Program-made: the position numbers and the translations under genes
Part shown: positions 4,868 to 58,386 of the stretch, in pieces
How the letters are laid out: every line of letters begins with the position of its first letter
Numbering within the stretch: the stretch's first letter is position 1
NCBI GenBank assembly: GCA_964016885.1
Contig: OZ024741.1
Coordinates: 101,370,001 to 101,434,000, forward strand
Reading direction: 5' to 3'
From: Eledone cirrhosa
Lineage: Eukaryota
DNA length: 64,000 nucleotides
The notes under the pieces: generated by a model
What the model was told of the DNA's origin: nothing
Database searches by the model: none
What the model saw: only the letters and a program-made list of their open reading frames with translations

Positions 4868-4976
4868 GTATGTATATATATATATATTTACTTTATATTT
4901 ACTTTTTCATTCTTTTATATATTCATATATATATATTTACTTTATATTTACTTTTTCATTCTTTTTATATTATTAG

Positions 4977-10900: not shown

Positions 10901-12058
10901 ATGATTAGGAAGTCCTTGTCGTCTGTTAGAGCAGTAGTGTGTATTAGGGACTCGTAAAACCTATCCTTAAGTTCGTCTGGCAGCCCCGATTGGGGTGCGT
11001 AAGCTGATATTATTGTGGTAATTGTCTTATTCAGGACTAGTCTGAGTTTAATGATTCTTGCATTTACCCTGTACACTGAGATTACTTTATCTACCCACTT
11101 GTCAGCTAATAGTATACCTACACCACCCATCCCATCGTCATTTCCCACCCAGAAAAATTTGTAGCACTGGCTTTTTCCTACAAGGACTAGTCTCTTGCAC
11201 ACAGCATACATCAACTTACTTTCGCTCTAGCATTTCTAAGATTTCTCCTGCTCTTCCTTTCATTGAGCCTACATTGATGGTACCAACTCAGAGTTTTGGG
11301 CATTTGTCGACACTCGTAGGGGAGGGTCTCTGGGTTGGCGCTTCACGTGGGTGCTTGGTAGCTCGCAGATTCATATTTCATCTATTGATTCAGAGTTGCT
11401 CAAATGTATTCTCAGCTCATCCATCCATAACGGTGGGAAAATTGAGGGCTAGAAGAACAGTGGTGGTGGGGTAGTGGCAGGGTGTGTTCGGCTGCGCCAG
11501 AGGAGGAGAGAGTTAGTTAGGTAGGTAGTAGCAGCAGCAGCAGTGGAAATGGCATGCTGAGGTTTGATTGGTTGAATCGGCTATCGTGGTGTGTGGGGGT
11601 GGGTGGGAGGGAAATTGTGAGGTAGGCACTGAGGGTCGCATGGTAAATAACCGAGAGAGATACAATATAATTAGAATACCGCATGGTAAATATCCAAGTT
11701 AATACACCAGTAAAATTAACAATAATAACGTCATGAAAACTACTAAGAAACCTTCGAAAATTTATCGATAATACAGCAGGAAAACAGCATTAATATTAAC
11801 AACAATATATAGACTAAAATACCTTCGAAGATTAGTATGGATGGATGGCTGGAACGAATTGAAATCAACTCTAATGATACATTTTAGCAGATAAGGGGAA
11901 AAGTGTCTTGTCTCTTCAAAAGTTTGAGAATGAATGAGGTTCGATAGGTTAGAGATAGGGTAGTAATCCTAAAGAGAGGCATAGAGAGGGGGGGAGGGGG
12001 TAGGCACTGAGGGTCGCATGGTAAATAATGAGGTTCGATAGGTTAGAGATAGGGTAGT
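7976..12058 (-). mobile_element. RTE family B, near full-length, inserted in the Gypsy protease
   Basis: ORFs 8282-10357 (RT, YADD) and 10657-11214 (APE), a (GAT)n tail at 7976, and a 5' region with internal direct repeats. Confidence 0.95.
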
Positions 12059-15000: not shown

Positions 15001-15145
15001 GGCCACGAAAACTCTCAAAAACAATATACATTTAAACCCCAGTGGCATTAACATACCTCTTCTTTTTCAGTTTTCAGATAGAACTAGTGTCAGAAAAGTC
15101 TGTACACTAGTTATGTATGAACTATTTGACTTTGAAAAACATTGA
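12059..15145 (+). pseudogene. Gypsy pol (rest of protease, RT, RNase H, integrase), frameshifted
   Basis: ILGADFL, SPWASP, DYRRLN, YVDD, FLGH, TDHK, ADALSR, HMDIVGP, IDRFSRW, TDRGCQF and GPF motifs across ORFs 12153-13643, 13510-13986 and 13772-15145. Confidence 0.95.
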
Positions 15146-15748: not shown

Positions 15749-16000
15749 CATTTATGCCAGCTCCTTTTGTACATATCGAACATGGCCATTTCCCTGACGG
15801 AATCAGAGTTTTGTCCTCTTTTCTACTTATCAACACTTTTGTCTTAGCTAGGTTCACTCTCAGTCCTCTTGATTCCAATGGCTGTTTCCATAGCCAGAAT
15901 TTATTCTCTAGCTCCTCTACTGATTCTGATATAAGAACCAGATCATCAGCATAGAGAAGTTCCCATGGGCAGCCAGTCTTAAACTCCTCTGTTATGGCTT
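15749..16000 (-). mobile_element. RTE family C fragment, continuation of 5515-6505
   Basis: AITEEFKTGCPWELLYADD...GKWPCSIC. It joins 6505 seamlessly once the Gypsy and one TSD are removed. Confidence 0.92.
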
Positions 16001-16004
16001 TCTT

Positions 16005-16381
16005 CATTTTGCATTATTAAAACATTTGTTATTAGGTTAAATTGTTTTTCGTTAAAACTCCTGCATGCTAATTCTTGAGCATATTGGTTTAGGTCGCTTC
16101 TGTCCTTGCTAAAATAAGGGATACAACTGATTATTTTTGGTGTCGCTTGTGTGTAAAAATATTATAGTCTGTGGTAATGGGCATAACTCTACTTTCCTTT
16201 AGTGTTGAAAAATTATGTTGCAAGTGAGTTCAATCTTGGTTTAAATTTTCTGATAAAGATTTTATCTTTATTAATTCGACCTTGTTCTGTGATTTCATAA
16301 CTACATTGGTACAATGGGAAAACATCGAAATTTGGCAGCGTTTTGCCTCTGCATTCTTCTATATGTTTGCTTAGAGGGATC
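16005..16381 (-). mobile_element. Penelope-like element fragment (GIY-YIG C-terminus and 3' region)
   Basis: Manual translation IPLSKHIEECRGKTLPNFDVFPLYQC...GRINKDKIFIRKFKPRLN resembles PLE endonuclease ends. Confidence 0.7.
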
Positions 16382-16389
16382 TTCAATGC

Positions 16390-16900
16390 CACTGGCTAGA
16401 TATAGTCAGGGTTCCTCTACAAAGTTCCGTGGCTCTGATACTATAGATTTGGATGGAGGATAGAAACTCCACTATTCAGGTGTGGCACCAGAAATGACTG
16501 CACAGGTGAGAGTGGGGATACTCATAAGCCCCTGGCTGTCAGAATGCGTTATGGACTGGATCCCATTAAGAGGGAGAATTTGCCTCTTAGAGCTTAGGCT
16601 GAAAGATAGGTCTCTGTGGGAGGTGCAAGTTTATGCACCAAACTAGGAATCCGAATACAGACCCTTCCTTGGGGAAGTCACTGCAGCGTTATATGAGTTA
16701 CAACTGAGTCATATATCCTGATGGGAGACTTCAATGCACATGTTGGTACAGACCACCTGACATGGATTGGAATGGTGACCCCCCCCCCCATTTCAAATAT
16801 GAATGGAAAGGCCATATTAGACTTCTGTTCTAGCAATGAACATCTTCCAGTACAGAGACATCCATAAATATACATTGTATAAGGAGAATCAGGGACAGAG
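16390..16900 (+). mobile_element. Degenerate APE fragment of another RTE-type LINE
   Basis: STKFRGS..LDGG*KLHYSGV..VGILISP..VQVYAPN..LMGDFNAHVG. Confidence 0.75.
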
Positions 16901-16964
16901 ATCAATAATTGCACACTACATCTCATTCCTCCTATACACAGTTTTTCTTTCAGCTCATTTCTAG

Positions 16965-17017
16965 ATATGTTAGAGGAGAAGCAGAAAAGAAGTTTGTACA
17001 TGTTGTACGTCTTCATT
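16965..17017 (+). CDS. Putative 53-nt host exon (YVRGEAEKKFVHVVRLH)
   Basis: TTTCTAG acceptor and GTATGT donor. It is open in the frame that splices in phase to 21278-21300. Confidence 0.35.
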
Positions 17018-17096
17018 GTATGTTCCTGTTATTCAAACAAAATACTTCCTTTGTTATCATGTTTGTATAATTGAGGTCTAATTATATATATATATA

Positions 17097-17797
17097 TATA
17101 ACCTTACCTTCTCGCTAACCTTAATTCTGTCGTATTTTCAAAACAAAACAAATCCTTCTTATATATTCTTTTAAATATATTTTGTTATGCTGGTTAAATT
17201 TTATGCCAAATTTTGAGTGCTTTATTTAAACTCTTAACCTCTGCTCCATCCTATCTTCTCCCCCCCCCCCCCCTCTATACATATAAGGTAAACCCTACCA
17301 AGTACGAAAAATTCAGAATCGCCAAATCCCTTTTCTGGTATGGCTGTTTCCATCGTATAATGTAACATACAAATATTTTCTCCATTCTCCTCTCCATTTT
17401 AATGCATTAGTCCATCCATTCACCATTCTCTATCATATTTTCCAATCTTTGTCTTTCTACTCGATACACTGTCGTATTTTCCAAAACAAATCTTGTGTTT
17501 TTGTTTATGCTTGTTAAATTATGCCCAAAATACGGAGATCCTATTTATAACCTTACCTTCTCGCTAACTACCCAACATCCCTCCCTCCCGCCCCCACGCA
17601 CCACCATTATTACGTGGACCAATCATAAGTCAGAGGCCTATACTATCGCTTACCTGGTTGCCTTTCGATATGACTACGGAATTCTGGAGAGTTGAAGAGA
17701 GAAAAATCTGGACGCTCAGTGACAATGCCAAAGACAAAGTCACCTCGTGGACGAGAATGCAAGCACTCCTCCTTGTTTCGGCCACGGATGGCTAACA

Positions 17798-17831
<34 letters not shown>

Positions 17832-20800
17832 CCACCGCCCCCACCCTCCAAACGCAATCCAAAGCTTCAGAGTTGGTACCATGAATGTAGGCACCTTAAA
17901 GGGTCGTTCTAACGAGGTTGTAGAAATGCTTGAACGTAAGGAGGTTGATGTTTGTTGTATTCAACAGACCAGGTGGAGGGGAGGGTCTGCTAGATTCATC
18001 GTGGGTAAAGAACGATGCTATAAGCTTTTCTGGGTGGGAAATGACAATGGGCTGGGTGGAGTAGGAATCATGGTAGCAGAAAAGTGGGCAGATAAGATAA
18101 TAGACGTAAATAGAGTGAACGACAGAATAATTAAAATAAGACTTGTCCTCAATAGAACTACGGTGACAGTAATATCTGCGTACGCACCCCAATCCGGACT
18201 GTCCGGCACTATAAAAGACAGATTCTATGAGACACTGATGCTCGTCACCTCCCAAATAACCGACAGTGACTATATAATTATTGTAGGTGACCTAAATGGT
18301 CACGTTGGACAACATTGTGACGGCTATGACGGAATCCATGGAGGCTATGGTTTCGGTACTAGAAATGAGGAAGGCTCCAGAATCCTGGAATTCTGTGACG
18401 CAAATAACCTAACTATCTGTAACACTAACTTCAAAAACGAGACAATCACTTGATCACCTATAGATCGGGGGAACACACAAGCTAGGTAGATTATATCCTT
18501 ACCAGAAGACGTGACAGAGTGTCTGTTGTAAACACTAAATCCCTCCCCCATGAAGAATGCACCTCCCAACATAGACTGATAATTAGCGACCTCATAGTCA
18601 GGACGAGACGTACTAGACAGCAGAAGAGGACTATCCTCAGGAGAAAAATATGGAAGCTAAAGGACCCCACAACCAGAAATAAATTTCAAAGCATATTACT
18701 TGATGCTTTCGACAGTAAGGAAGAGCAATTAGAGTCGTATAATATAGAGGAACAGTGGGAATTCCTGAAAGCAAACCTGCTGACGGCGGCAGACAAAGTC
18801 TGTGGCTGGAGCAGGCCTGTAGGTAGGAGGAGAGTAATATGGTGTTGGAACAGTAAGGTGGAGGAGTCAATTAAGGCCAAAAAGCAGGGCTTGGAAAGTA
18901 TGGCGGGATGGGGGAAGTAGAGAAGACTATCAAGTGGCTAGGAGACCAGTGTACTTCGCAAGAAGGGAAGCAGAGGAAAGAAAGTTCAAGCATGTTCTAC
19001 AACATGAGGACCAAAAACATGAGGTGTTCAGGATTGCTAGGCAATGTGTCAAGGAAAACCGTGATATTGTCGGGGAGAAGTGTGTACTTAACGATGATGG
19101 CGTACTTGCCATCACTGACGCTGATAAGAAGGTAGCTTGGAAGTGTCACTACGAAAGGCTGCTAAATGAGGAGAATAAATGGGAGAAAGACAGTCTCCCC
19201 CACATCGACCCAATAGAGGGACCAGCAGTGTTAGTCGAAGGTAATATAATAAGTAAGGCAATCAAAGATATGAAGACGGGTAAGGCGGCTGGGCCTTCGG
19301 AAATAGTTGCTGAGATGCTGAAAGCCTCTGGAACGGTGGGACACACCATGGTCACCCGGATAGTAAACCAAGTCATACAGAATGGGGTTGTTCCGAAGGA
19401 CTGGCGTAGCAGCATCATCATTAACTGTTATAAGGGTAAAGGAGATGCCCTAGATAGGAGTAACTATAGAGGCATTAAATTAATTGACCAGGTCATGAAG
19501 GTCACGGGAAAAGTAATAGCACAACTAATCAGAGAGAGAATTGATCTAGATGAAATGCAGTTCGGGTTTGTGTCAGGCAAAAGTACCACAGACACTCTTT
19601 TCGTTGTACGACAACTACAGGAGAAGTACCAAGCTAAAAGTAAACCCCTATACTTAGCTTTTGTTGACTTGGAGAAAGCCTTCGACAGAGTTCCCCGTTC
19701 CATTATCTGGTGGGCTCTTAGAAAACTAGGTGTTGACGAATGGCTTGTGAGAGCTATAGAAGCCATGTATAAAGAAACAGTCAGCAAGGTTAGAATTAAC
19801 AACGAATATAGTGAAGAGTTTAGTGTAAAAGTTGGTGTTCATCAGGGCTCTGTTCTCAGCCCCCTACTATTTATTATTGCCCTTCAGGCTATAAACAGTG
19901 GAGTTCAAGACCGGCTGCCCATGGGAACTCCTATACGCAGATGATCTAACGCTCATAGCTGAATCAATGGCCGAGCTAGAGAAGAAATTCCAAACATGGA
20001 AGCACGGCCTAGAATCCAAAGGCCTTAAAATTAACCTGGCTAAGACTAAAGTTCTAGTTTGTAGGAAAGAAAATAAGGCGCCGGTCCCTTCCGGGAAATG
20101 GCATGCTCAGTGTGTAGGAAAGGCGTAGGTAGAAACTCCATTTTATGTCCCAAATGCAAAGTATGGGTGCATAAAAGATGTAGTGAGATCACAGGTAAGC
20201 TAACTAAGAACATAGATTTTACATGTGGCCGGTGTTCTGGTGCAATAAGTAGCAGCAAGTGCCCACAAAATACTAGCTCTTTCAATTGCGCAGAGGGTTC
20301 TATAGAAATAGTGGACAGCATCCGTTACCTGGGTGACAAAATCAGCAGTGGGAGAGGGTGCTCTGAAAGTACAGTAGCTAGAGTCAGAAATGGATGGAAA
20401 AAGTTCAGAGAGCTTATACCACTATTAGCCGCTAAAGGGTTCTCCCTAAAAATGAAAGGCAGGTTGTATGATGCCTGCATACGAACAGCAATGTTGCATG
20501 GCAGTGAGACCTGGGCATTGTGTGCAGAGGATATACGCAGACTAGAGAGGAACGAAGCATGCATGCTCCGCTGGATGTGTAATAGTAATATACGTGAACG
20601 GCAAAGCATAAACGAACTAAGGAAAAAATTAGAAATAAGAGGGATCAGATGTTGTTTACTCGAGAGAAGGCTACGTTGGTATGGTCACGTGATGCGCATG
20701 AAAGACGACAGCAGTATAAAAAAGTGCAGGGCAATAAAGATAGACGGTAGCCACGGAGTAGGCAGACCCAGAAAAACCTGGGACGACCTGATAAATTCTG

Positions 20801-21270
20801 ACCTCACACACTTACACCTCTCCAAGACAATGTCACTGGACCGAGATCTTTGGCGGTACTCAGTAACAGAGAAGACCCGCCTTGCCTAAATACAAAGTAA
20901 ACCTATTACAGTCAGTAGGCATCTCTAACAAAATACGCCCCGTCACACCACCCCCACCCCATCCACACCGCCCCTTTCAATGTAAAGTTATGTTGGTGCC
21001 ACAACATCCAGGCCGAAACAAATGAGATCGTGTAGGTGTCACGACAAAAAAACACAGTCCACGCTGTAATGTGGCCGTGTAGGCAACACGGTAAAAACCT
21101 CACAGTCCCACACTGTAAATGTGGTTGGTGTTAGGAAGGGCATCCAACTGTAGAAAACCTGCCAGACAGTCCTATGCGAGCGAGACAAGCACTCTTGCCT
21201 CAAGTGGGAATACCCCCATCCAAACCCATGCAAGCATGGAACACGGACGTTAAACGATGATGATGATGAT
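17097..21270 (+). mobile_element. RTE family A full-length defective copy, duplicate of 1-3638
   Basis: Has the same frameshifts and stops and the same 3' flank as the first copy. The 5' UTR is bounded by a 23-bp direct repeat (17097 and 17546). Confidence 0.96.
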
Positions 21271-21277
21271 ATATAAG

Positions 21278-21300
21278 CAAACGGGATATTTCATTTGTTG
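21278..21300 (+). CDS. Putative 23-nt host micro-exon
   Basis: AG...|GTAATT. It is phase-compatible with 16965-17017 upstream and with the phase-0 exons downstream. Confidence 0.3.
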
Positions 21301-21412
21301 GTAATTCAACAAATATATTTGTTTATAACTGATTCGTAGCACTCGACAGGTTTTCTGGAGTATAATATTAATGATATTAAATAAATGGAAACTATATTTA
21401 TAAAACCATATT

Positions 21413-22304
21413 TATTCTATTATATATATTTCAAGGGTATCAAAACTTTGGTATGCACTCATCAGATAAAATACAAAGTTTGTTTTATAAATATTGACAT
21501 ATCCAGGAAAGTGATCTTAATGGTTCAAGTTTTTCCTGGATAGTAAAATAAATTATATAATTTCGCTAAATTAACAATGTTCTGAAAACATTTTCAATGT
21601 CGGAGGAAAATATTTGAATCTACAAATTGTTCTTCTCTTACAATTTGAACTACGTCTTTTTCTTAAATATTTATGTAAAATGTAAAATCAACATCCTTTG
21701 TAATTCATCTTAGAAATGTAAACAATTAATACGTGTGGTTTATTTCTATAAAATCACCAATAATACTTATACTTGCACACTTATTAATCTATATAGATAT
21801 TTATATACTTACAACCTGTTACAATGTAATAAGATAAAATGTACTTACAACCATAATTCTTCATATAATATAATTGATTGTATATATAATATTATAACTC
21901 ATAATATAGCTAAATATATTTTTTAAATTCTGGAATCATATTCCACCATTCCTACAAACTTTTAATTCTTTTTAAATTCACGTAAATACAAGCTTTTCTT
22001 TCTTTCTCTTTCTTCTTCCTACACATACATATATATATCCTAATAATTATTTAAATCTACCTAGCGTCTAAAAATAACGTTTTTTTTCAGCCCTATACTT
22101 TAACCTCATTTGCATATTTATCTTAATAATTTGAAATATTTGACTTTTCCTCTCTTTCCCCTTTTTCCTTTTACTATCCAGGAAAAACTTGAACCGTTAA
22201 GATCACCTTCCTGGATATGTCAATATTTATAAAACAAACTTTGTATTTTATCTAATGAGAGCGTACCAAAGTTTTGATACCCTTGAAATATATATAATAG
22301 AATA
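21413..22304. repeat. Duplicate of the hammerhead-containing fold-back element at 3781-4671
   Basis: Near-identical sequence, with arms at 21413-21548 / 22169-22304. Confidence 0.8.
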
Positions 22305-22440
22305 TTATGTTTAATTATTAATATTTTCTTCTTGAGTCATATCCCCATCGAAGGTGAAGCATTCATTTTGCTTTTTCTAATATTAATATATTTGGAGCTA
22401 ATTATTTCTATTTACTTTTTCATTCTTTTTATATTATTAG

Positions 22441-22500
22441 CAACCAGACGAAAGTTATTCACCAAACTCTAAACAGTATGGTTCAAGGCCTCCATTTCAG
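22441..22500 (+). CDS. Putative 60-nt phase-0 host exon QPDESYSPNSKQYGSRPPFQ (duplicate)
   Basis: Identical to 4808-4867. The adjacent RTE insertion changes the donor to GTATCA. Confidence 0.6.
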
Positions 22501-22502
22501 GT

Positions 22503-24389
22503 ATCATCATCATCATCATCATCAACGTTTAACGTCCGTGTTCCACGCTTGCATGGGTTTGGACGGGGGTAGTCCCATTTGAGGCAAGAGTGATTGTCTT
22601 GCTCGCATAGGACTGTCTGGCAGGTTTTCTACAGTTGGATGCCCTTCCTAACACCAACCACATTTACAGTGTGGGTCTGGGAGGTTTTTACCGTGTTGCC
22701 TACACGGCCACATTACAGCGTGGACTGTGTGTTTTTTTGTCGTTACACCTACACGATCTCATTTGTTTCGGCCTCGATGGCGCGGCACCAACATAACTTT
22801 ACATAGAACGGGGTGGTGTGGATCGGGTGGGGGTGGTGGTGGTGGGACGGGGTGTATTTTGTTAGAGATGCCTACTGGCTGGAGTAGGTTTTACTATATA
22901 TTTAGGTAAGGCGGGTCTTCTCTGTTACTGAGTACCGCCAAAGGTCTCGGTCCAGTGACATTGTCTTGGAGAGGTGTAAGTGTGTGATGTCGGAGTTTAT
23001 CAGCTCGTCCCAGGTTTTTCTAGGTCTGCCTATTCCGTGACTACCGTCTATCTTTATTGCCCTGCACTTTGTTATACAGCTATCGACTTTCATGTGCATC
23101 ACGTGTCCATACCAACGTAGCCTTCTCGCGAGTAAACAACATCTGATCCCTCTTATCTCTAATTTTTTCCTTAGTTCGTTTATGCTTTGCCGTTCACGTA
23201 TATTACTGTTACACATCCAGCGGAGCATGCAAGCTTCGTTCCTCTCTAGTCTGCGTATATCCTCTGCACACAATGCCCAGGTCTCACTGCCATGCAGCAT
23301 TGCTGTTCGTATGCAGGCATCGTACAACCTGCCTTTCATTTTTAGTGAGAACCCTTTAGCAGCTAATAGTGGTATAAGCTCTCTGAACTTTTTCCAACCA
23401 GTTCTGACTCTAGCTACAGTACTTTCAGAGCACCCTCCCCCACTGCTGATTTTATCGCCCAGGTAACGGAAGCTGTCCACTATTTCTATAGAACCCTCTG
23501 CGCAATTGAAAGAGCTAGTAGTTTGTGGGCACTTGCTGCTACTTATTGCACCAGAGCACCGGCCACATGTAAAATCTATGTTCTTAGTTAGCTTACCTGT
23601 GATCCCACTACATCTTTTATGCACCCATACTTTGCATTTAGGACATAAAATGGAGTTTCTACCTACGCCTTTCCTACACACCGAGCACGACCATTTCCCA
23701 GAAGGGACCGCCGCCCTGTTTTCTTTCCTACAAACTAGTACTTTGGTCTTAGCCAGGTTAATTTTAAGTCCTTTTGACTCTAGGCCGTGCTTCCATGTTT
23801 GGAATTTCTTCTCTAGCTCGGCCATTGATTCCGCTATGAGTGTCAGGTCGTCTGCGTATAGGAGTTCCCATGGGCAGCCTGTCTTGAACTCCTCTGTTAT
23901 AGCCTGAAGGGCAATAATAAATAGTAGTGGGCTGAGAACAGAGCCCTGATGGACGCCAACTTTTACGCTAAACTCTTCACTATATTCGTTGTTAATTCTA
24001 ACCTTGCTGACTGTTTCTTTATACATGGCTTGTATAGCCCTCACAAGCCATTCGTCAACGCCTAGTTTTCTAAGAGCCCACCAGATAATGGAGCGGGGGA
24101 CTCTGTCGAAGGCTTTCTCCAAGTCGACAAAAGCTAAGTAGAGGGGTTTACCTTTAGCTAGGTACTTCTCCTGTAGTTGTCGTACTATGAAAAGAGCGTC
24201 TGTGGTACTTTTGCCTGACACAAACCCGAACTGCATTTCATCTAGGTCAATTCTCTCTCTGATTAGTTGCGCTATTACTTTTTCCGTGACCTTCATGACC
24301 TGGTCGATTAATTTAATGCCTCTATAGTTACTCCTATCTAGGGCGTCTCCTTTACCCTTATAACAGTTAACGATGATGCTGCTATGCCA
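22503..24389 (-). mobile_element. RTE family A, young 5'-truncated copy
   Basis: Uninterrupted ORF 22902-24296, nearly identical to the 3' part of the intact copy at 49420. Confidence 0.96.
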
Positions 24390-44365: not shown

Positions 44366-47300
44366 GCTGTAAAATGGAGGGGTAGAGAGGGCCCTTGAGT
44401 CTAGTAAGACATCCTCTCTAGTGCTGGTGGCACAAATAAAAGCACCCAGTCCATGCTGTAAAGTGGCGCTGGTGTTAGGAAGGGCATCCAACCAGTGTAT
44501 CAATGCCAAAAAGCTTATCAGCACAGCAACAAAACAGCATAGAAAAAAATATGAAGACGTCGCATCTCAGAGTTGCAACACTTAATGTTGGCACTCTCAG
44601 AGGTAGATCTGCTGAAATAGCGGAGATGCTGGAGAGAAGGCAGGTGGATGTGTGCTGCGTGCAAGAGGTGAGATGGAGAGGTGCCTCTGCGAGACTAGTC
44701 GTAGGCAAGCGTCTTAGCTATAAGCTATTCTGGGTAGGTAAGGATGATGGGTTAGGGGGAGTAGGCATTTTCCTGGCTGAGAAATGGATCAATAAGACAA
44801 TAGAGGTAGTTCGAGTTAGTAATCGAATAATTAAGCTTAGATTAGTTGTAGGTAGGAGACTACTGACAATCATCTCGGTCTATGCTCCCCAAGCAGGCCT
44901 AGGCAAAGATGAGAAAGACTGCTTTTATGAGCAACTTTTGCAAACAACCACAATGAAAGAGGACGGAGACATCGTTATGCTAGCAGGAGACTTCAATGGT
45001 CATGTTGGACAGCTCCAGGATGGTTACACTGGGGTACATGGTGGGCATGGTTACGGTTCAAGAAATGAAGAAGGAGTGAGACTTCTTGAATTTTGTGATG
45101 CAAGTACATTGACTATTTGCAACACAAACTTCCAGAAACCTGCCAATCACCTAATAACCTACAAATCTGGTGAGCACATAAGCCAGATTGACTTCCTGCT
45201 AGTTAGGCAGCGGGACAGGCAGATAGTGTCTAATACCAAGGCATACCCTGGGGAAGAATGTACCCCACAGCATAGGTTAGTTGTTAGTGATATCTCAGTA
45301 AGCAAGAGATGGAATGAGCCATATAGGAAGGTGTGGAGAAGAAAGGTCTGGAAGCTAAAAGACCTTTCACTAAAATTCAAATTTAGGAAAGCCCTTCAAG
45401 ATGTATATGACGAAAAAGAAGACGATTTAGAGACGTATGACATAGATAATAACTGGAAGTTCTTACGTGACAACTTGCTGAAGGCTACTGATGAAACTTG
45501 TGGCTGGAGCAGAGCCCCAACCAGACAGAGAGTGACCTGGTGGTGGAACAGCAGTGTAGATAAGGCTATTAGAGACAAAAGACTAGCATGGAAGGCTTGG
45601 AATAAGGGTGGGAGTAGGGAAGAATATACAGCCACTAAGAGAGAAGCTAGACGTCAGGTGTACTTAGCACGCAGGGAGGCAGAGAGTAGGAGGTTTGCCA
45701 ATGTTCTGCGACGGGAAGATCAGAGGCGTGCGGTGTTCCACATTGCAAGGCAGTGTGTCAATGCAAATCAGGATGTTGTTGGTGATAAATGTGTCCGGGA
45801 TGATGCCGGTGTACTTAGTGTCACGAATGATCAGAAAAAGGAGGCCTGGAAATGTCATTATGAGAGGCTGATGAATGTGGAGAACAAATGGGAGAGAGAG
45901 AAATTACCCTTGGTAGATCCGACAGAGGGACCAGCTATTGAGATTGACGAATATAGGGTCCAAGAGGCGATTAGGGAAATGAAAAATGGTAAGGCGGCCG
46001 GACCATCGGGAATAGTTGCTGAGATGCTGAAGGCATCAGGGGACGTAGGCACTAAACTGGTTGCACGCATAATCAATCAGGCTATATATGGTGGTGTCAT
46101 ACCCAAAGACTGGTGCAGCAGTATTCTCATAAATTGCTACAAAGGTAAAGGGGATGCTTTGGAGAGGAGCAATTATAGGGGTATAAAACTGATAGATCAG
46201 GTTATGAAAGTGGCAGAAAGGATTTTAGCACAACTAATTAGAGAAAGGGTCAAACTAGATGAGATGCAGTTTGGTTTTGTGCCTGGGAAGAGTACAACAG
46301 ATGCCCTCTTCTTGGTGAGACAAATGCAAGAGAGGTTCTTAGAGAAGAATAAGCCACTATACTTGGCCTTTGTTGACCTAGAGAAGGCCTTTGATAGGGT
46401 ACCCCGATCTGTCATCTGGTGGTCCCTAAGGAAGCTGGGTGTTGAGGAATGGCTTGTAAGGACAGTGCAAACTTTGTACAGAAGTACTCTCAGTAAAGTC
46501 AGGGTAGGAATGGAGTTTAGTGAGGAATTCCAGATACAAGTAGGAGTACATCAGGGTTCGGTCCTCAGCCCGCTCTTGTTCATTATAGTCCTCCAAGCCA
46601 TAACAGAGGAGTTTAAGACTGGCTGTCCATGGGAACTTCTCTATGCTGACGATCTGGCTCTTATGGCAGAATCAGTAGAGGAGCTAGAGAATAAATTCCG
46701 GCTATGGAAACAGCAGTTGGAAGCAAGAGGACTGAGAGTAAATCTAGCTAAGACAAAAGTGTTGATGAGTAGAAAATAGGACAAAACCCTGATTCCGTCA
46801 GGGAAATGGCCATGTTCGATATGCAGAAAAGGAACTGGCATAAATTCTATAAAATGCACACAATGTAGGTCCTGGGTACACAAGAGATGTAGCGGGATAG
46901 CAGGCAAACTAACAGGTAGGGAGAAATATGTATGCAGTAGATGTACAGGGAAATTAGACAGTAGAAGTCGCACTGATAGACACATTTTTCAAATGCGAGA
47001 GGGCGCTATAGAAGTGGTGGATAGCTTCCGGTACCTAGGAGATCAGATTAGCATGGGAGGAGGGTGTTCCGAGGCCATAGTATCTAGAATAAGGACGGGT
47101 TGGAAGAAGTTTAGGGAGCTGCTTCCTCTGTTGACGAAGAAGGGTTTCTCCCTGCGTACGAAAGGCCGGTTGTATGATGCCTGTGTGAGGAGCGCGATGC
47201 TGCATGGTAGTGAGACATGGGCAGCTACCGCAGAAGATATGCGACGGCTGGAGAGAAATGAGGCAAGCATGCTCCGTTGGATGTGCAGTGTAAATGTGCG

Positions 47301-47620
47301 TGAACGACCCAGCATAAATGTGTTGAGAGAGAAACTGTGTCTGAGAGGGATAGAATGTAGTGTACGGGAGAGGAGACTGAGGTGGTATGGACATGTGATG
47401 CGCATGGAGGATGACCGATGGGTGAAGAAGTGCCAGGAAATGCCAGTTGAAGGAAGACGTAGTAGAGGTAGACCACGAAAAACATGGGCGGAGGTGGTGA
47501 GAACAGACCTCAGATCATTGAAGCTCACGGTGGAGATGACGAGGGACCGTGACGAGTGGAGAGATGCTGTGCTGAATAAGACCCGTCCCACCCTTGCAAG
47601 CAGGGAAAAGCGGACGTAAA

Positions 47621-48926: not shown

Positions 48927-49419
<493 letters not shown>

Positions 49420-49814
49420 ATCATCATCATCATCATCATCATCAACGTTTAACGTCCGTGTTCCACGCTTGCATGGGTTTGGACGGGGGTAGTCCCACTT
49501 GAGGCAAGAGTGATTGTCTTGCTCGCATAGGACTGTCTGGCAGGTTTTCTACAGTTGGATGCCCTTCCTAACACCAACCACATTTACAGTGTGGGTCTGG
49601 GAGGTTTTTACCGTGTTGCCTACACGGCCACATTACAGCGTGGACTGTGTGTTTTTTTGTCGTGACACCTACACGATCTCATTTGTTTCGGCCTCGATGG
49701 CGCGGCACCAACATAACTTTACATAGAACGGGGTGGTGTGGATCGGGTGGGGGTGGTGGGACGGGGTGTATTTGTTAGAGATGCCTACTGGCTGGAGTAG
49801 GTTTTACTATATAT

Positions 49815-52800
49815 TTAGGTAAGGCGGGTCTTCTCTGTTACTGAGTACCGCCAAAGGTCTCGGTCCAGTGACATTGTCTTGGAGAGGTGTAAGTGTGTGA
49901 TGTCGGAGTTTATCAGCTCGTCCCAGGTTTTTCTAGGTCTGCCTATTCCGTGACTACCGTCTATCTTTATTGCCCTGCACTTTGTTATACAGCTATCGAC
50001 TTTCATGCGCATCACGTGTCCATACCAACGTAGCCTTCTCTCGAGTAAACAACATCTGATCCCTCTTATCTCTAATTTATTCCTTAGTTCGTTTATGCTT
50101 TGCCGTTCACGTATATTACTGTTACACATCCAGCGGAGCATGCAAGCTTCGTTCCTCTCTAGTCTGCGTATATCCTCTGCACACAATGCCCAGGTCTCAC
50201 TGCCATGCAGCATTGCTGTTCGTATGCAGGCATCGTACAACCTGCCTTTCATTTTTAGTGAGAACCCTCTAGCAGCTAATAGTGGTATAAGCTCTCTGAA
50301 CTTTTTCCAACCAGTTCTGACTCTAGCTACAGTACTTTCAGAGCACCCTCCCCCACTGCTGATTTTATCGCCCAGGTAACGGAAGCTGTCCACTATTTCT
50401 ATAGAACCCTCTGCGCAATTGAAAGAGCTAGTAGTTTGTGGGCACTTGCTGCTACTTATTGCACCAGAGCACCGGCCACATGTAAAATCTATGTTCTTAG
50501 TTAGCCTACCTGTGATCCCACTACATCTTTTATGCACCCATACTTTGCATTTAGGACATAAAATGGAGTTTCTACCTACGCCTTTCCTACACACCGAGCA
50601 CGACCATTTCCCAGAAGGGACCGCCGCCTTGTTTTCTTTCCTACAAACTAGTACTTTGGTCTTAGCCAGGTTAATTTTAAGTCCTTTTGACTCTAGGCCG
50701 TGCTTCCATGTTTGGAATTTCTTCTCTAGCTCGGCCATTGATTCCGCTATGAGTGTCAGGTCGTCTGCGTATAGGAGTTCCCATGGGCAGCCTGTCTTGA
50801 ACTCCTCTGTTATGGCCTGAAGGGCAATAATAAATAGTAGTGGACTGAGAACAGAGCCCTGATGGACGCCGACTTTTACGCTAAACTCTTCACTATATTC
50901 GTTGTTAATTCTAACCTTGCTGACTGTTTCTTTATACATGGCTTGTATAGCCCTCACAAGCCATTCGTCAACGCCTAGTTTTCTAAGAGCCCACCAGATA
51001 ATGGAGCGGGGGACTCTGTCGAAGGCTTTCTCCAAGTCGACAAAAGCTAAGTAGAGGGGTTTACCTTTAGCTAGGTACTTCTCTTGTAGTTGTCGTACTA
51101 TGAAAAGAGCGTCTGTGGTACTTTTGCCTGACACAAACCCGAACTGCATTTCATCTAGGTCAATTCTCTCTCTGATTAGTTGCGCTATTACTCTTTCCGT
51201 GACCTTCATGACCTGGTCGATTAATTTAATGCCTCTATAGTTACTCCTATCTAGGGCGTCTCCTTTACCCTTATAACAGTTAACGATGATGCTGCTATGC
51301 CAGTCCTTCGGAACAACCCCGTTTTGTACGACTTGGTTAACTATGCGGGTGACCATGGTGTGTCCCACCGTGCCAGATGCCTTCAGCATCTCAGCAACTA
51401 TTTCCGAAGGCCCAGCCGCCTTACCAGTCTTCATATCCTTGATTGCCTTACTTATTATACTCCCCTCGACTAACACTGCTGGTCCCTCTATTGGGTCGAT
51501 ATGGGGGAGACTGCCTTTCTCCCAATTATTCTCCTCATTTAGAAGCCTTTCATAGTGACACTTCCAAGCTACCTTCTTATCAGCGTCGGTGATGGCAAGT
51601 GTGCCATCGTCGTTTAGTACACACTTCTCCCCGACAATATCACAGTTTTCCTTGACGCATTGCCTAGCAATCCTGAACACCTCACGTTTTTGGTCATCGC
51701 GTTGTAGAACATGCTTGAACTTTCTTTCCTCAGCTTCCCTTCTTGCTAAGTACACTTGTCTCCTAGCTTCCCTCCTGGCCACTTGATAGTCCTCTCTACT
51801 TCCCCCATCCCGCCATACTTTCCAAGCCTGCTTTTTGGCCTTAATTGACCCCTCCACCTTACTGTTCCACCACCATGTTACTCTCCTCCTGCCTACAGGC
51901 CTGCTCCAGCCACAGACCTCGTCTGTCGCCAACAGCAGGTTTGCTTTCAGAAATTCCCACTCTCCCTCTATATTGTCCGACTCTAAATGTTCTTCCTTAC
52001 TGTCGAAAGCATCAAGTAATATGCTTTGAAATTTATTCCTGGCTGTGGGGTCCTTTAGCTTCCATATTTTCCTCCTGAGGATAGTCCTCTTCTGTTGTCG
52101 AGTACGTCTCGTCCTGACTATGAGGTCGCTAATTATCAGTCTATGTTGGGAGGTGCATTCTTCATGGGGGAGGGATTTAGTGTTAACAACAGACACTCTG
52201 TCACGTCTTCTGGTAAGGATATAATCTACCTGGCTTGTGTGTTCCCCGGATCTATAGGTGATCAGGTGATTGTCACGTTTTTTGAAGTTAGTGTTACAGA
52301 TAGTTAGGTTATTTGCATCACAGAATTCCAGGATTCTGGAGCCTTCCTCATTTCTAGTACCAAACCCATAGCCTCCATGGATTTCGTCGTAGCCGTCACA
52401 ATGTTGTCCAACGTGACCATTTAGGTCGCCTGCGATAATTATATAGTCACTGTCGGATATTTGGGAGGTAGTTAGCATCAGTGTCTCATAGAATCTGTCT
52501 TTTATAGTGCCGGGCAGTCCGGATTGGGGTGCGTACGCAGATATTACTGTCACCGTAGTTCTATTGAGGACAAGTCGTATTTTAATTATTCTGTCGTTCA
52601 CTCTATTTACGTCTATTATCTTATCTGCCCACTTTTCTGCTACCATGATTCCTACTCCACCCAGCCCATCGTCGTTTCCCACCCAGAAAAGCTTATAACA
52701 ACGTTTTTTACCCTCAATGAACCTAGCAGACCCACCCCTCCACCTGGTCTCTTGAATACAACAAACATCGACCTCCTTACGTTCAAGCATTTCTACAACC

Positions 52801-53255
52801 TCGTTAGCGCGACCCTTTAGGGTGCCTACATTTATGGTACCAACTCTGAAGTTTTGGATTGCGTTTGGGGGTTGGGGGCGGTGAGGGGCGGGGGGCGATG
52901 GGGTTATGTTAGCCGTCCGCGGTCGAAACAATGAGGAGTGCTCGCATTCTCGTCCAAGGGGTGAATTTGTCTTTATCTTTGGCATTGTCGCTGAGCGTCC
53001 AGATTTTTCTCTCTCACCTCCACTCTCCAGGATTCCGCAGTCCATCCATCCATCATATATCGTATATCGAAAGGCAACCAGGCAAGCGATAGTATAGGCC
53101 TCTGGTTTCTGATTGGTCCGCGTAATAATACTGGTGATACGTGGGGGCTCTGTTTTATGATTGGTCCACGTAATAGCAATGGTGGTGTGTGGGGGTGGGA
53201 GGGAGGGGTGTTGGGTAGCTAGCAAGAAGGTAATGATTGAGATGGGTCTATGCAT
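49815..53255 (-). CDS. APE endonuclease + reverse transcriptase (with internal C4HC3 finger), 1146 aa; true start may be a downstream Met
   Basis: GTINVGTL, CIQETRW, YAPQ, GDLNGHVG, QFGF, DLEKAFDRV, QGSVLSP, YADD, FRYLG and LRWYGHV all lie in one frame. Confidence 0.95.
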   Translation of the reverse strand: MHRPISIITFLLATQHPSLPPPHTTIAITWTNHKTEPPRITSIITRTNQKPEAYTIACLVAFRYTIYDGWMDCGILESGGEREKSGRSATMPKIKTNSPLGRECEHSSLFRPRTANITPSPPAPHRPQPPNAIQNFRVGTINVGTLKGRANEVVEMLERKEVDVCCIQETRWRGGSARFIEGKKRCYKLFWVGNDDGLGGVGIMVAEKWADKIIDVNRVNDRIIKIRLVLNRTTVTVISAYAPQSGLPGTIKDRFYETLMLTTSQISDSDYIIIAGDLNGHVGQHCDGYDEIHGGYGFGTRNEEGSRILEFCDANNLTICNTNFKKRDNHLITYRSGEHTSQVDYILTRRRDRVSVVNTKSLPHEECTSQHRLIISDLIVRTRRTRQQKRTILRRKIWKLKDPTARNKFQSILLDAFDSKEEHLESDNIEGEWEFLKANLLLATDEVCGWSRPVGRRRVTWWWNSKVEGSIKAKKQAWKVWRDGGSREDYQVARREARRQVYLARREAEERKFKHVLQRDDQKREVFRIARQCVKENCDIVGEKCVLNDDGTLAITDADKKVAWKCHYERLLNEENNWEKGSLPHIDPIEGPAVLVEGSIISKAIKDMKTGKAAGPSEIVAEMLKASGTVGHTMVTRIVNQVVQNGVVPKDWHSSIIVNCYKGKGDALDRSNYRGIKLIDQVMKVTERVIAQLIRERIDLDEMQFGFVSGKSTTDALFIVRQLQEKYLAKGKPLYLAFVDLEKAFDRVPRSIIWWALRKLGVDEWLVRAIQAMYKETVSKVRINNEYSEEFSVKVGVHQGSVLSPLLFIIALQAITEEFKTGCPWELLYADDLTLIAESMAELEKKFQTWKHGLESKGLKINLAKTKVLVCRKENKAAVPSGKWSCSVCRKGVGRNSILCPKCKVWVHKRCSGITGRLTKNIDFTCGRCSGAISSSKCPQTTSSFNCAEGSIEIVDSFRYLGDKISSGGGCSESTVARVRTGWKKFRELIPLLAARGFSLKMKGRLYDACIRTAMLHGSETWALCAEDIRRLERNEACMLRWMCNSNIRERQSINELRNKLEIRGIRCCLLERRLRWYGHVMRMKVDSCITKCRAIKIDGSHGIGRPRKTWDELINSDITHLHLSKTMSLDRDLWRYSVTEKTRLT

Positions 53256-54034
53256 TTAACAAGCGATTAACAAAAATACAAAATTTGTTCAGTTAAATAC
53301 GTCCAAAAACCTAATCGTATTTAGCACTTAATAGAAACAGAAAATGTAGTTTGTTTTAGCGATAGAATGGCTATTTGGACTTGAAATACGAAATGTGGAT
53401 TGTTTTGAAAATACGCTAGGAGAGAGAGAGAGAGAGATGAAGTCTGTACATTACGTTTACATGAGAGTTTCGTTTGGACAGCAGGCAAAGAAATGAAATT
53501 TGGCGAAGTGAATTCCTATCATATATTTATAGGGAGAGAGAGAGAGAGAGAGAGAGTGCGAGGGTAGGGGGCCACATGATGGCTGTGGGTGTTAGGCGTT
53601 TGACCGCCCCGTGCCTTCGAAGAAGGAAGAAGGAAAGGATTTTGCTTTTTTGTTTTGAAGATACGCTAGAATTAGGGATTTGGGTTTGAAAATACGTTAG
53701 GAATTAAGGTTTGAAAATAGCTAGCAAGAAGGTAATGATTGAGATGGGTCTATGCATTTAACAAGCGATTAACAAAAATACAAAATTTGTTCAGTTAAAT
53801 ACGTCCAAAAACCTAAACGTATTTAGCACTTAATAGAAACAGAAAATGTAGTTTGTTTTAGCGATAGAATGGCTATTTGGACTTGAAATACGAAATGTGG
53901 ATTGTTTTGAAAATACGCTAGGAGAGAGAGAGAGAGAGAGATGAAGTCTGTACATTACGTTTACATGAGAGTTTCGTTTGGACAGCAGGCAAAGAAATGA
54001 AATTTGGCGAAGTGAATTCCTATCATATATTTAT

Positions 54035-54070
<36 letters not shown>

Positions 54071-54544
54071 CGAGGGTAGGGGGCCACATGATGGCTGTGG
54101 GTGTTAGGCGTTTGACCGCCCCGTGCCTTCGAAGAAGGAAGAAGGAAAGGATTTTGCTTTTTTGTTTTGAAGATACGCTAGAATTAGGGATTTGGGTTTG
54201 AAAATACGTTAGGAATTAAGGTTTGAAAATAGCTAGCAAGAAGGTAATGATTGAGATGGGTCTATGCATTTAACAAGCGATTAACAAAAATACAAAATTT
54301 GTTCAGTTAAATACGTCCAAAAACCTAAACGTATTTAGCACTTAATAGAAACAGAAAATGTAGTTTGTTTTAGCGATAGAATGGCTATTTGGACTTGAAA
54401 TACGAAATGTGGATTGTTTTGAAAATACGCTAGGAGAGAGAGAGAGAGAGATGAAGTCTGTACATTACGTTTACATGAGAGTTTCGTTTGGACAGCAGGC
54501 AAAGAAATGAAATTTGGCGAAGTGAATTCCTATCATATATTTAT

Positions 54545-54582
<38 letters not shown>

Positions 54583-55056
54583 CGAGGGTAGGGGGCCACA
54601 TGATGGCTGTGGGTGTTAGGCGTTTGACCGCCCCGTGCCTTCGAAGAAGGAAGAAGGAAAGGATTTTGCTTTTTTGTTTTGAAGATACGCTAGAATTAGG
54701 GATTTGGGTTTGAAAATACGTTAGGAATTAAGGTTTGAAAATAGCTAGCAAGAAGGTAATGATTGAGATGGGTCTATGCATTTAACAAGCGATTAACAAA
54801 AATACAAAATTTGTTCAGTTAAATACGTCCAAAAACCTAAACGTATTTAGCACTTAATAGAAACAGAAAATGTAGTTTGTTTTAGCGATAGAATGGCTAT
54901 TTGGACTTGAAATACGAAATGTGGATTGTTTTGAAAATACGCTAGGAGAGAGAGAGAGAGAGATGAAGTCTGTACATTACGTTTACATGAGAGTTTCGTT
55001 TGGACAGCAGGCAAAGAAATGAAATTTGGCGAAGTGAATTCCTATCATATATTTAT

Positions 55057-55092
<36 letters not shown>

Positions 55093-56070
55093 CGAGGGTA
55101 GGGGGCCACATGATGGCTGTGGGTGTTAGGCGTTTGACCGCCCCGTGCCTTCGAAGAAGGAAGAAGGAAAGGATTTTGCTTTTTTGTTTTGAAGATACGC
55201 TAGAATTAGGGATTTGGGTTTGAAAATACGTTAGGAATTAAGGTTTGAAAATAGCTAGCAAGAAGGTAATGATTGAGATGGGTCTATGCATTTAACAAGC
55301 GATTAACAAAAATACAAAATTTGTTCAGTTAAATACGTCCAAAAACCTAAACGTATTTAGCACTTAATAGAAACAGAAAATGTAGTTTGTTTTAGCGATA
55401 GAATGGCTATTTGGACTTGAAATACGAAATGTGGATTGTTTTGAAAATACGCTAGGAGAGAGAGAGAGAGAGATGAAGTCTGTACATTACGTTTACATGA
55501 GAGTTTCGTTTGGACAGCAGGCAAAGAAATGAAATTTGGCGAAGTGAATTCCTATCATATATTTATAGGGAGAGAGAGAGAGAGAGAGAGAGAGTGCGAG
55601 GGTAGGGGGCCACATGATGGCTGTGGGTGTTAGGCGTTTGACCGCCCCGTGCCTTCGAAGAAGGAAGAAGGAAAGGATTTTGCTTTTTTGTTTTGAAGAT
55701 ACGCTAGAATTAGGGATTTGGGTTTGAAAATACGTTAGGAATTAAGGTTTGAAAATAGCTAGCAAGAAGGTAATGATTGAGATGGGTCTATGCATTTAAC
55801 AAGCGATTAACAAAAATACAAAATTTGTTCAGTTAAATACGTCCAAAAACCTAAACGTATTTAGCACTTAATAGAAACAGAAAATGTAGTTTGTTTTAGC
55901 GATAGAATGGCTATTTGGACTTGAAATACGAAATGTGGATTGTTTTGAAAATACGCTAGGAGAGAGAGAGAGAGAGATGAAGTCTGTACATTACGTTTAC
56001 ATGAGAGTTTCGTTTGGACAGCAGGCAAAGAAATGAAATTTGGCGAAGTGAATTCCTATCATATATTTAT

Positions 56071-56106
<36 letters not shown>

Positions 56107-56580
56107 CGAGGGTAGGGGGCCACATGATGGCTGTGGGTGTTAGGCGTTTGACCGCCCCGTGCCTTCGAAGAAGGAAGAAGGAAAGGATTTTGCTTTTTTG
56201 TTTTGAAGATACGCTAGAATTAGGGATTTGGGTTTGAAAATACGTTAGGAATTAAGGTTTGAAAATAGCTAGCAAGAAGGTAATGATTGAGATGGGTCTA
56301 TGCATTTAACAAGCGATTAACAAAAATACAAAATTTGTTCAGTTAAATACGTCCAAAAACCTAAACGTATTTAGCACTTAATAGAAACAGAAAATGTAGT
56401 TTGTTTTAGCGATAGAATGGCTATTTGGACTTGAAATACGAAATGTGGATTGTTTTGAAAATACGCTAGGAGAGAGAGAGAGAGAGATGAAGTCTGTACA
56501 TTACGTTTACATGAGAGTTTCGTTTGGACAGCAGGCAAAGAAATGAAATTTGGCGAAGTGAATTCCTATCATATATTTAT

Positions 56581-56618
<38 letters not shown>

Positions 56619-57092
56619 CGAGGGTAGGGGGCCACATGATGGCTGTGGGTGTTAGGCGTTTGACCGCCCCGTGCCTTCGAAGAAGGAAGAAGGAAAGGAT
56701 TTTGCTTTTTTGTTTTGAAGATACGCTAGAATTAGGGATTTGGGTTTGAAAATACGTTAGGAATTAAGGTTTGAAAATAGCTAGCAAGAAGGTAATGATT
56801 GAGATGGGTCTATGCATTTAACAAGCGATTAACAAAAATACAAAATTTGTTCAGTTAAATACGTCCAAAAACCTAAACGTATTTAGCACTTAATAGAAAC
56901 AGAAAATGTAGTTTGTTTTAGCGATAGAATGGCTATTTGGACTTGAAATACGAAATGTGGATTGTTTTGAAAATACGCTAGGAGAGAGAGAGAGAGAGAT
57001 GAAGTCTGTACATTACGTTTACATGAGAGTTTCGTTTGGACAGCAGGCAAAGAAATGAAATTTGGCGAAGTGAATTCCTATCATATATTTAT

Positions 57093-57132
<40 letters not shown>

Positions 57133-57246
57133 CGAGGGTAGGGGGCCACATGATGGCTGTGGGTGTTAGGCGTTTGACCGCCCCGTGCCTTCGAAGAAGG
57201 AAGAAGGAAAGGATTTTGCTTTTTTGTTTTGAAGATACGCTAGAAT
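53216..57246 (-). repeat. Tandem array of 502-512-bp units (7 full + 1 nearly full)
   Basis: Units start (+ coordinates) at 53216, 53718, 54230, 54742, 55252, 55756, 56266 and 56778. They differ essentially only in (GA)n length. Confidence 0.97.
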
Positions 57247-57327
57247 GTATATATATATGTATATATGTATATATGTATATACGTATATATATATATCTAT
57301 ATATGTATATATGTATATATATATATC

Positions 57328-57359
<32 letters not shown>

Positions 57360-57464
57360 TATAATATATGTATATATATATATATATGTATATATGTATA
57401 TATATATATAATATATGTATATATATATATATATAATATATGTATATATATATGTATATATGTA

Positions 57465-57506
<42 letters not shown>

Positions 57507-57633
57507 GTATATATATATAATATATAAATATATGTATATGTATATATGTATATATATATATATATGTATATGTATATATGTATATATATATATATGTATA
57601 TGTATATATGTATATATATATGTATATATGTAT

Positions 57634-57665
<32 letters not shown>

Positions 57666-57870
57666 GTATATGTATATATGTATATATATATATATATGTA
57701 TATATATATGTATATATATATATGTATATATATATGTATATATATATATGTATATATATATATGTATATATATATATGTATATATATATATGTATATATA
57801 TATATGTATATATTATATATGTATATATATATTATATATGTATATATATTATATATGTATATATATATAT
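57247..57870. repeat. Compound (TA)n microsatellite
   Basis: Direct inspection. Confidence 0.98.
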
Positions 57871-58386
57871 ATGAATTAGTTTAGCGAGGTTTTTTATATG
57901 AAATCGTGTGTCGAAACAAATATTATACTTGGGGAGGGTCATATTTGTGTAATATTGCCAGAATTAATAGCAGAACACACTCACTGTGAAAAAATGGCGT
58001 AGACATACAACACAAAAATGGTGTAAACATACAACACAAAAATGGCGTAAACATACAACACAAAAATGGCTTAGACGTACAACACAAAAATGGCGTAGAC
58101 ATACAACACAACAGGAGGAAAAAAAAAAAATATATAACACCACTGGCGATGTTGCAGATGTGCAACGAAAGATTTATGTAAATTATGTAAACTATATATA
58201 TGTGTTTGTGTCTATATTGTATCTGTATTATTTTTGACCGTCGGTTAGTCAGTGGCAACATTGAGGACCGATTAAGTTAGATCGCAGATATAAAAGACAG
58301 CGAGAAGCGAAAACCAACCAAACAGTGAGTGTGTTCTGTTATTAATTCTGGCAATATTACACAAATATGACCCTCCCCAAGTATAA
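57871..58386. repeat. Fold-back repeat (~63-bp arms, ~57924-57986 / ~58323-58386) enclosing a 24-bp x5 minisatellite; related to ~39360-39515
   Basis: Inverted arms, the unit aaaaatggcgtagacatacaacac at ~57989-58110, and a homolog near 39.4 kb. Confidence 0.8.

Follow-up and report, generated by a model that had tools for sequence, protein, structure and literature searches.

Mouse and rat LINE-1 (L1) retrotransposons (L1Md A, Tf and Gf; L1Rn), members of the long interspersed nuclear elements (LINEs), carry a variable number of tandem 5′ units, or monomers, before a non-repeated tether, the 5′-most unit being truncated. The tether measures about 250 bp in rodent L1 (PMC5381506) and longer arrays are found in the younger subfamilies (PMC9022269). 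The mechanism of monomer duplication in mouse L1 has been called unclear, and second-strand priming and unequal crossing-over have been proposed (PMC6454616). The retention of a LINE promoter despite erosion during reverse transcription is a partly open question, and a second clade now shows the same plan. In a stretch of 64,000 nucleotides from Eledone cirrhosa (NCBI GenBank assembly GCA_964016885.1, contig OZ024741.1, forward-strand positions 101,370,001–101,434,000; hereafter the window), an intact RTE-type LINE is preceded by eight tandem copies of its own leader unit. In this study, we describe this array and its counterparts throughout the genome, and argue that a single unit is likely multiplied anew at, or close to, each insertion to give such arrays.

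The layout is that of the rodent elements, with a tether of 233 bp between the units and the MPK start of the open reading frame (ORF), and long arrays were met in the young subfamily only. Otherwise the element differs from rodent L1: it belongs to another LINE clade and has one ORF, no ORF1, a (GAT)n tail and a TA target; its unit is AT-rich (38% GC) and holds two microsatellites, whereas the rodent monomer is a CpG island; its 5′ ends are dispersed, whereas those of mouse A monomers are phased to one site; and its breakpoints are anchored at a G-quadruplex (G4) motif, while its promoter is only putative. By analogy, the array appears to work as a rodent L1 monomer array does without being a member of that group and, the LINE clade being another one, would be convergent with it.

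A single ORF with endonuclease and reverse transcriptase (RT), a microsatellite-like 3′ end and TA-containing targets are features shared with RTE-clade LINEs such as RTE-2_OV of Octopus vulgaris and Bov-B (PMC9115989, PMC13295347). Compared by description, RTE-2_OV has a 600-nt 5′ untranslated region (UTR) and a 1109-aa ORF with a C2H2 finger, whereas the present element encodes 1056 aa, with a PHD finger; the paper describing RTE-2_OV mentions no tandem repeat and does not use the word 'tandem' (PMC9115989). A recent annotation of repeats in octopus counts 182 RTE insertions as recently active (PMC13282606). The arrangement also recalls HeT-A and TART, in which a promoter in one repeat serves downstream sequence (HeT-A: PMC4700185), as the candidate promoter may do here. 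Unlike in HeT-A/TART, where a whole element or 3′ UTR is repeated, the repeat here is a leader unit, and the insertions are dispersed. Tandem 5′ promoter A-modules are also present in Dictyostelium TRE5-A. In the literature covered, which lies outside Repbase and the subscription journals, no report was found of 5′ tandem arrays in RTE elements or of G4-anchored duplication in retrotransposons.

The eight head-to-tail units occupy positions 53219–57246 and abut the 5′ side of the intact single-ORF element (Table 1). On the forward strand they start at 53219, 53721, 54233, 54745, 55255, 55759, 56269 and 56781; the seven full units measure 502–512 bp and the 5′-most, which ends against a (TA)n run at 57246, measures 466 bp, so that the preliminary description of about eight monomers of about 510 bp is borne out. 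The units differ from one another only in the lengths of two (GA)n tracts and in a single base substituted in the ORF-proximal one, and the array is far beyond chance. A 1146-codon frame on the minus strand (53255–49815) runs from the proximal unit through the body and encodes APE endonuclease, RT and PHD domains. As had been claimed, it belongs to the sole intact RTE in the window, being the one full-length endonuclease–RT frame among 28 ORFs of at least 150 aa. A further in-frame ATG 20 codons upstream of MPK (53043–53045) may serve as the start instead.

Table 1. Positions of the element, its leader units and associated motifs in the window
Feature	Position	Strand	Remarks
(TA)n target run, 3′ side	48928..49419	.	
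(GAT)8 tail	49420..49444	-	
3′ UTR	49445..49814	-	
Third G4 motif	49745..49766	+	In 3′ UTR
Single ORF	49815..52985	-	Conserved; 1056 aa from MPK; APE endonuclease, RT, PHD finger
Second G4 motif	52867..52903	+	Proline-rich codons
Two 48-bp repeats	53112..53170	+	Each with CCAAT box; candidate internal promoter
G4 motif	53191..53215	+	Five G runs; element template strand; G4Hunter 2.56
Unit 1	53219..53720	-	ORF-proximal; 502 bp; private base and one substitution of its own
Upstream ATG (MHRP...)	53253..53255	-	In frame at this locus
TATA-like box (TATAAA)	53526..53531	-	After (CT)n tract, unit 1; same in every unit; putative function
Units 7-2	53721..56780	-	Six full units, 504-512 bp; differ only in two (CT)n lengths
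Unit 8	56781..57246	-	5′-most, truncated, 466 bp, from unit position 49; element 5′ end
(TA)n target run, 5′ side	57248..57872	.	

The array is family-wide. A search with a single unit found 133 matches at 39 loci that were scored, the best 39 of 403 candidates and a set that favours long units; each of these 39 top loci has 0.7 to 12 units immediately 5′ of a body with 98.9% identity or more, which is not the pattern of free satellite DNA. Counted genome-wide by exact patterns, junctions of unit to body number 181 and those of unit to unit 799, controls giving 0, and the first 100 of the 181 unit-to-body copies in coordinate order make up the census used below. Internal junctions were absent from 43 census copies, single in 30 and two to 20 in number in 27; four arrays exceed the stretch covered and three with variant junctions are scored as zero. 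The proposal that the array is a lineage trait therefore holds, with at least one internal junction in 57/100 copies, and the genome-wide monomer count that had been suggested contradicts the notion that only single-unit copies exist elsewhere. Leaders reach at least 1 kb in 27, at least 2 kb in 18 and at least 4 kb in 11 of the 100 copies; in mouse, by comparison, 7 of 5765 loci have more than 10 monomers of about 200 bp. Arrays range from 0 to 20+ units, some holding 11–20 identical ones, occur on many contigs and are always truncated at the 5′ edge against the target, with unit type and length specific to each locus.

The family is very young: many copies lie 0–5 bases from their nearest sister over 3.2 kb, and the 1056-aa ORF is intact in 70/100, with no further long frame upstream (no ORF1). 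The 3′ end consists of short tandem repeats without poly(A), a (GAT)3–9 tail being present in 94/100 copies, and the 5′ flank is TA-like in 75/96. The element, which by its architecture is a probable member of the RTE clade, is called RTE-type here; the relatives retrieved for its placement comprise endonuclease–RT–PHD proteins at 54–64% identity together with L1 and R2 structures. The PHD finger, at residues about 796–839 after the RT domain, is common to many of these relatives. An older subfamily about 10% away, of which two copies lie in or beside the window, shows the tail-unit-body plan with units of 446–660 bp; nine motif pairs at this spacing were found among the 100 matches listed, with junctions 0–11 nt from the same boundary. 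One older locus (L163) has three units and no body within the 2.6 kb covered.

Further copies were met outside the census. A count of truncation along the element by 18-mers gave 4078, 532 and 246 matches against 181 junctions and is confounded by subfamily breadth; 40 extra loci taken from these counts are mostly related subfamilies with the same leader. One candidate (L085) was a chance motif match and was dropped, and another locus (L082), without an exact junction, stands outside the census. Among 20 sampled copies, five (L207, L212, L214, L215 and L216) are cut 5–30 nt after the MPK codon, at an A-rich stretch, and four young copies on one contig (L070–L073; C1, 7.4–9.4 Mb) lie within a short-period satellite and not (TA)n. 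Metagenome contigs, which are short and collapsed, yielded 53 loci of distant relatives; the 11 examined have leaders mostly of 130–580 nt, with neither an array nor a C tract.

Several observations bear on how the arrays arise. Divergence within an array is 0–0.3% in 12 of the 13 arrays measured, while sisters with 0–2 body differences carry different arrays and unit types: identical 3.2-kb bodies are preceded by leaders of 5974, 867 and 200 bp in one set (L040, L148, L114) and of 3301 and 449 bp in another (L122, L120). Locus-private 15-mers are fixed across all units in 14/24 arrays. The window scored zero in this test, its truncated unit being without the site; its private base, at unit position 40, is nevertheless carried by units 7–2 and by unit 1, that is by 7/7 full units, and by 0/31 other loci covering the site. 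Since arrays are homogeneous within a locus and different between sisters, and private changes recur in every unit, they appear to have been re-amplified and not passively inherited, likely with one unit as the source and at, or close to, each insertion. The self-regenerating array of the preliminary description agrees with this pattern. Block duplication is indicated by variants that repeat at period 8 (L086) or period 4 (L031, L139). In the census, neither the private body changes of a copy (rho -0.11, p 0.28) nor the leader length of its nearest sister (rho -0.06) correlated with its own leader length, and array length was unrelated to the length of the 5′ partial unit (Mann–Whitney p=0.64). 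The share of copies continuing past successive junctions runs 57/100, 27/57, 21/27, 18/21, 17/18 and 17/17; this is a pattern of two populations of leader length, unlike the plain truncation of one long master. At five loci (L091, L129, L138, L153, L105) the units resemble mosaics of sister sub-lineage variants, units changing faster than bodies, and template switching or gene conversion is a possible source of such mosaics.

The first G run of the G4 motif nearest the array begins 3 nt past the unit/body boundary, inside the body; the motif is kept in 85/100 young and 11/20 older copies and broken in 15/100. Polymerases halt 1–2 nt ahead of a G4 (PMC4282361), so plus-strand synthesis would stall at the boundary. 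New tandem junctions end at unit position 515 in L048 (twice, proximal only), 511 in L059 (proximal only), 514/505 in L052/L080 (one event), 511 in L128 (three times) and 508 in L082, and 7 nt into the body in L157, a locus of the older subfamily. Six independent back-jumps end at unit positions 505–519 and resume at unrelated places with 0–4 nt of microhomology; seven end elsewhere, mostly between microsatellites or sub-repeats. The placing of 6/13 back-jumps within 19 of 912 bases has p about 1e-7 under a uniform null (hand list, post hoc) and p = 4e-4, also post hoc, if four events are taken to be deletions across the junction; small variants that span the junction (L105, L108, L119, L178a, L179), being ascertainment-biased, were excluded. 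At L082 a stretch of 1547 bp, of which 798 bp are local host flank, is perfectly triplicated up to the boundary, which makes this a DNA-level event. At L162 the second G4 marks the breakpoint of a fragment as well as of a deletion, both copies there being broken at it.

This clustering of junctions just before the G4 suggests stall-and-slip copying. Deletions at G4 sites combine a constant junction with a variable one, and in the C. elegans dog-1/polymerase theta rearrangements, which the events here resemble, the constant junction lies a few bases at most from the first G (PMC4654259). The dog-1 events are deletions, whereas the anchored events in the present family are tandem duplications, with frequent small in-tract deletions besides. 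The G4 likely seeds junctions and proximal duplications, and homologous exchange can do the bulk of the growth. That long arrays need the G4 is unsupported, as G4-broken copies have arrays as often (or lost the G4 later). Tandem repeats of the ribozyme-based kind (retrozymes, Penelope pLTRs) were considered and rejected: a search of the unit for described ribozymes gave 0 Rfam matches up to E=10, and no stable RNA structure was found at the boundary (fold z-score -0.18).

Judged from its sequence, the unit is probably the promoter of the element. Blocks within it are conserved across subfamilies, and 6/95 census 5′ ends lie about 30 nt downstream of the TATA-like box, at unit positions 227–233, where 1.3 would be expected; other clusters of 5′ ends are at 65–89, 377–393 and 436–453. 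The tail of each unit (53229–53236, plus strand, in unit 1) holds the antisense sequence AAG/GTAAT, AAG/GTAAG in older copies, which resembles the 5′ splice-donor consensus and may mark an antisense transcript. Within the body, the first of the two 48-bp repeats contains at 53160–53170 an exact ATTGG-N-CCACG motif of the ERSE-II type (consensus in PMC5890977), and the element might on this account respond to endoplasmic reticulum stress. The CCAAT box is present in 100/100 young and 16/20 older copies, and the ERSE-II-type motif in 97/100 and 12/20.

It had further been claimed that each unit re-uses the start of the ORF. At the window locus seven units do read MHRPISIITFLLAIFKP* on the minus strand as an upstream ORF (uORF), and the proximal unit opens into the 1146-codon frame; this part of the claim stands. 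Across the family it does not: of the 70 ORF-intact census copies, 61 have the MHRP ATG, which is in frame in 20/61 against an expected third (p=1.0) and opens into the ORF in 17/70. The ATG is incidental and not the family start codon, and a conserved ATG/uORF design is ruled out by an in-frame rate equal to the chance third. With five ATGs per unit, an RNA spanning several units would contain numerous uORFs.

The reading that we put forward, with confidence about evenly balanced against doubt, is that of a young RTE-type LINE whose unit array is likely re-amplified at or near each insertion and, the unit probably being the promoter, would replace the 5′ sequence lost on moving. Transcription would start in an upstream unit, and daughters would lose the front of that unit and keep the units downstream. 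Plus-strand synthesis, either of the second strand at insertion or in later replication, would stall at the minus-strand G4; the nascent end would then slip to the identical tail of the upstream unit, or rarely to microhomology, and a unit or junction would be gained. Once two units are present, unequal exchange could enlarge and homogenize the array in blocks with no G4 needed. Copies with at least two full units would be those whose daughters keep the promoter. A stricter version, in which an upstream TATA-type promoter is lost in each round and rebuilt by design, the G4 of the cDNA stalling the second strand and slip-back recopying the promoter, seems to us unlikely. If true, it would be a third solution to promoter retention, beside internal promoters and long terminal repeats, and a concrete mechanism of monomer regeneration.

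Several points weigh against re-amplification through G4-seeded copying of a promoter unit. The 5′ ends are dispersed (Kolmogorov–Smirnov test against uniform, p=0.12; best 25-nt window 15/95, p=0.013) and enriched near AAAT (26/95 versus 14%), so the clusters may be truncation hot spots, and the better-conserved CCAAT/ERSE-II-type block inside the body could be the real internal promoter. The breakpoint list was compiled by hand after inspection of the data, several boundary junctions can also be read as deletions, and young copies show no back-jump at the equally strong second G4. Two or more junctions are found in 6/15 G4-broken versus 21/85 G4-intact copies (p=0.22). A tail deletion common to the distal units of L049 and L054 is missing from their proximal unit; proximal slip-back cannot produce this arrangement, and multi-unit arrays can thus also pass through RNA, some being inherited. 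Of the private body changes, 39% are synonymous (132:208), where neutrality predicts 26%, so that some apparently locus-private amplification may date to unsampled parents.

On a different account, which we rate as somewhat unlikely, the arrays are a neutral by-product: the C-rich/CCAAT block in the body would be the working promoter, acting on dispersed upstream starts, and the unit would be leader DNA repeatedly duplicated by an unstable G-rich tract and two microsatellites. The retention of the CCAAT and ERSE-II-type motifs and the scatter of 5′ ends agree with it, as do the faster divergence of the unit (71–85%, against 91% for the body), the finding of at most one internal junction in 73/100 copies and the proneness of the region to duplication, seen in L082 and in a 6.5-kb segmental copy in the window. 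It accounts poorly, however, for a tail-unit-body plan that persists across subfamilies about 10% apart, for conserved blocks inside the unit with arrays confined to the unit, and for the excess of 5′ ends 30 nt past the TATA-like box. Addition of units during first-strand synthesis, which we consider quite improbable, would require the RT, on running to the RNA 5′ end or pausing, to switch to the 3′ end of a short leader RNA whose synthesis by polymerase II had been blocked at the boundary by the template-strand G4. Such a jump would likewise fix the right breakpoint, two left breakpoints (276 and 378) match 5′-end clusters, long arrays exist in copies without private body change, and end-to-end jumping is known for the R2 RT (cited in PMC2881922). 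Yet L082 repeats its own host flank, the period-4 and period-8 blocks require multi-unit templates, and the boundary yielded no ribozyme or stable structure.

Passive inheritance from a few long-array masters, with daughters truncated at random, is very improbable and largely refuted by the data. The distal-type unit common to L049 and L054, the sharing of base unit types within sub-lineages and the existence of unsampled parents would fit such descent, but the long arrays compared are all of different types, 14/24 arrays have private changes fixed in every unit, and the continuation rate, about one half at first, exceeds three quarters beyond the second junction. That an assembler multiplied one unit is scarcely credible: although the identical runs of 11–20 units could be so produced, the window units differ in microsatellite length, unit type and length are specific to loci on many contigs, and both ordered block variants and older, diverged pairs occur.

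Second-strand slip, RT jump and unequal exchange should be separable in this family, in which about 180 very young copies, mostly with an intact ORF, arrays of up to 10 kb and visible breakpoints provide a good system for the study of monomer regeneration. Consensus sequences derived from short reads may hide 5′ arrays in other LINE families.

The window holds other repeats besides. Two further RTE-like families, 67–74% identical to the present one, have split frames at 44503–47619 and 8282–11211, and broken Ty3/gypsy-like pol frames, with RT and integrase judged by eye, lie at 12543–15145. An older RTE copy lies, together with its flanks, in a 6.5-kb segment that occurs twice, at a distance of 17.6 kb and with 99.4% identity; one copy of the segment is at 15997–22504 and the other extends from 1.6 kb before the window to position 4872.

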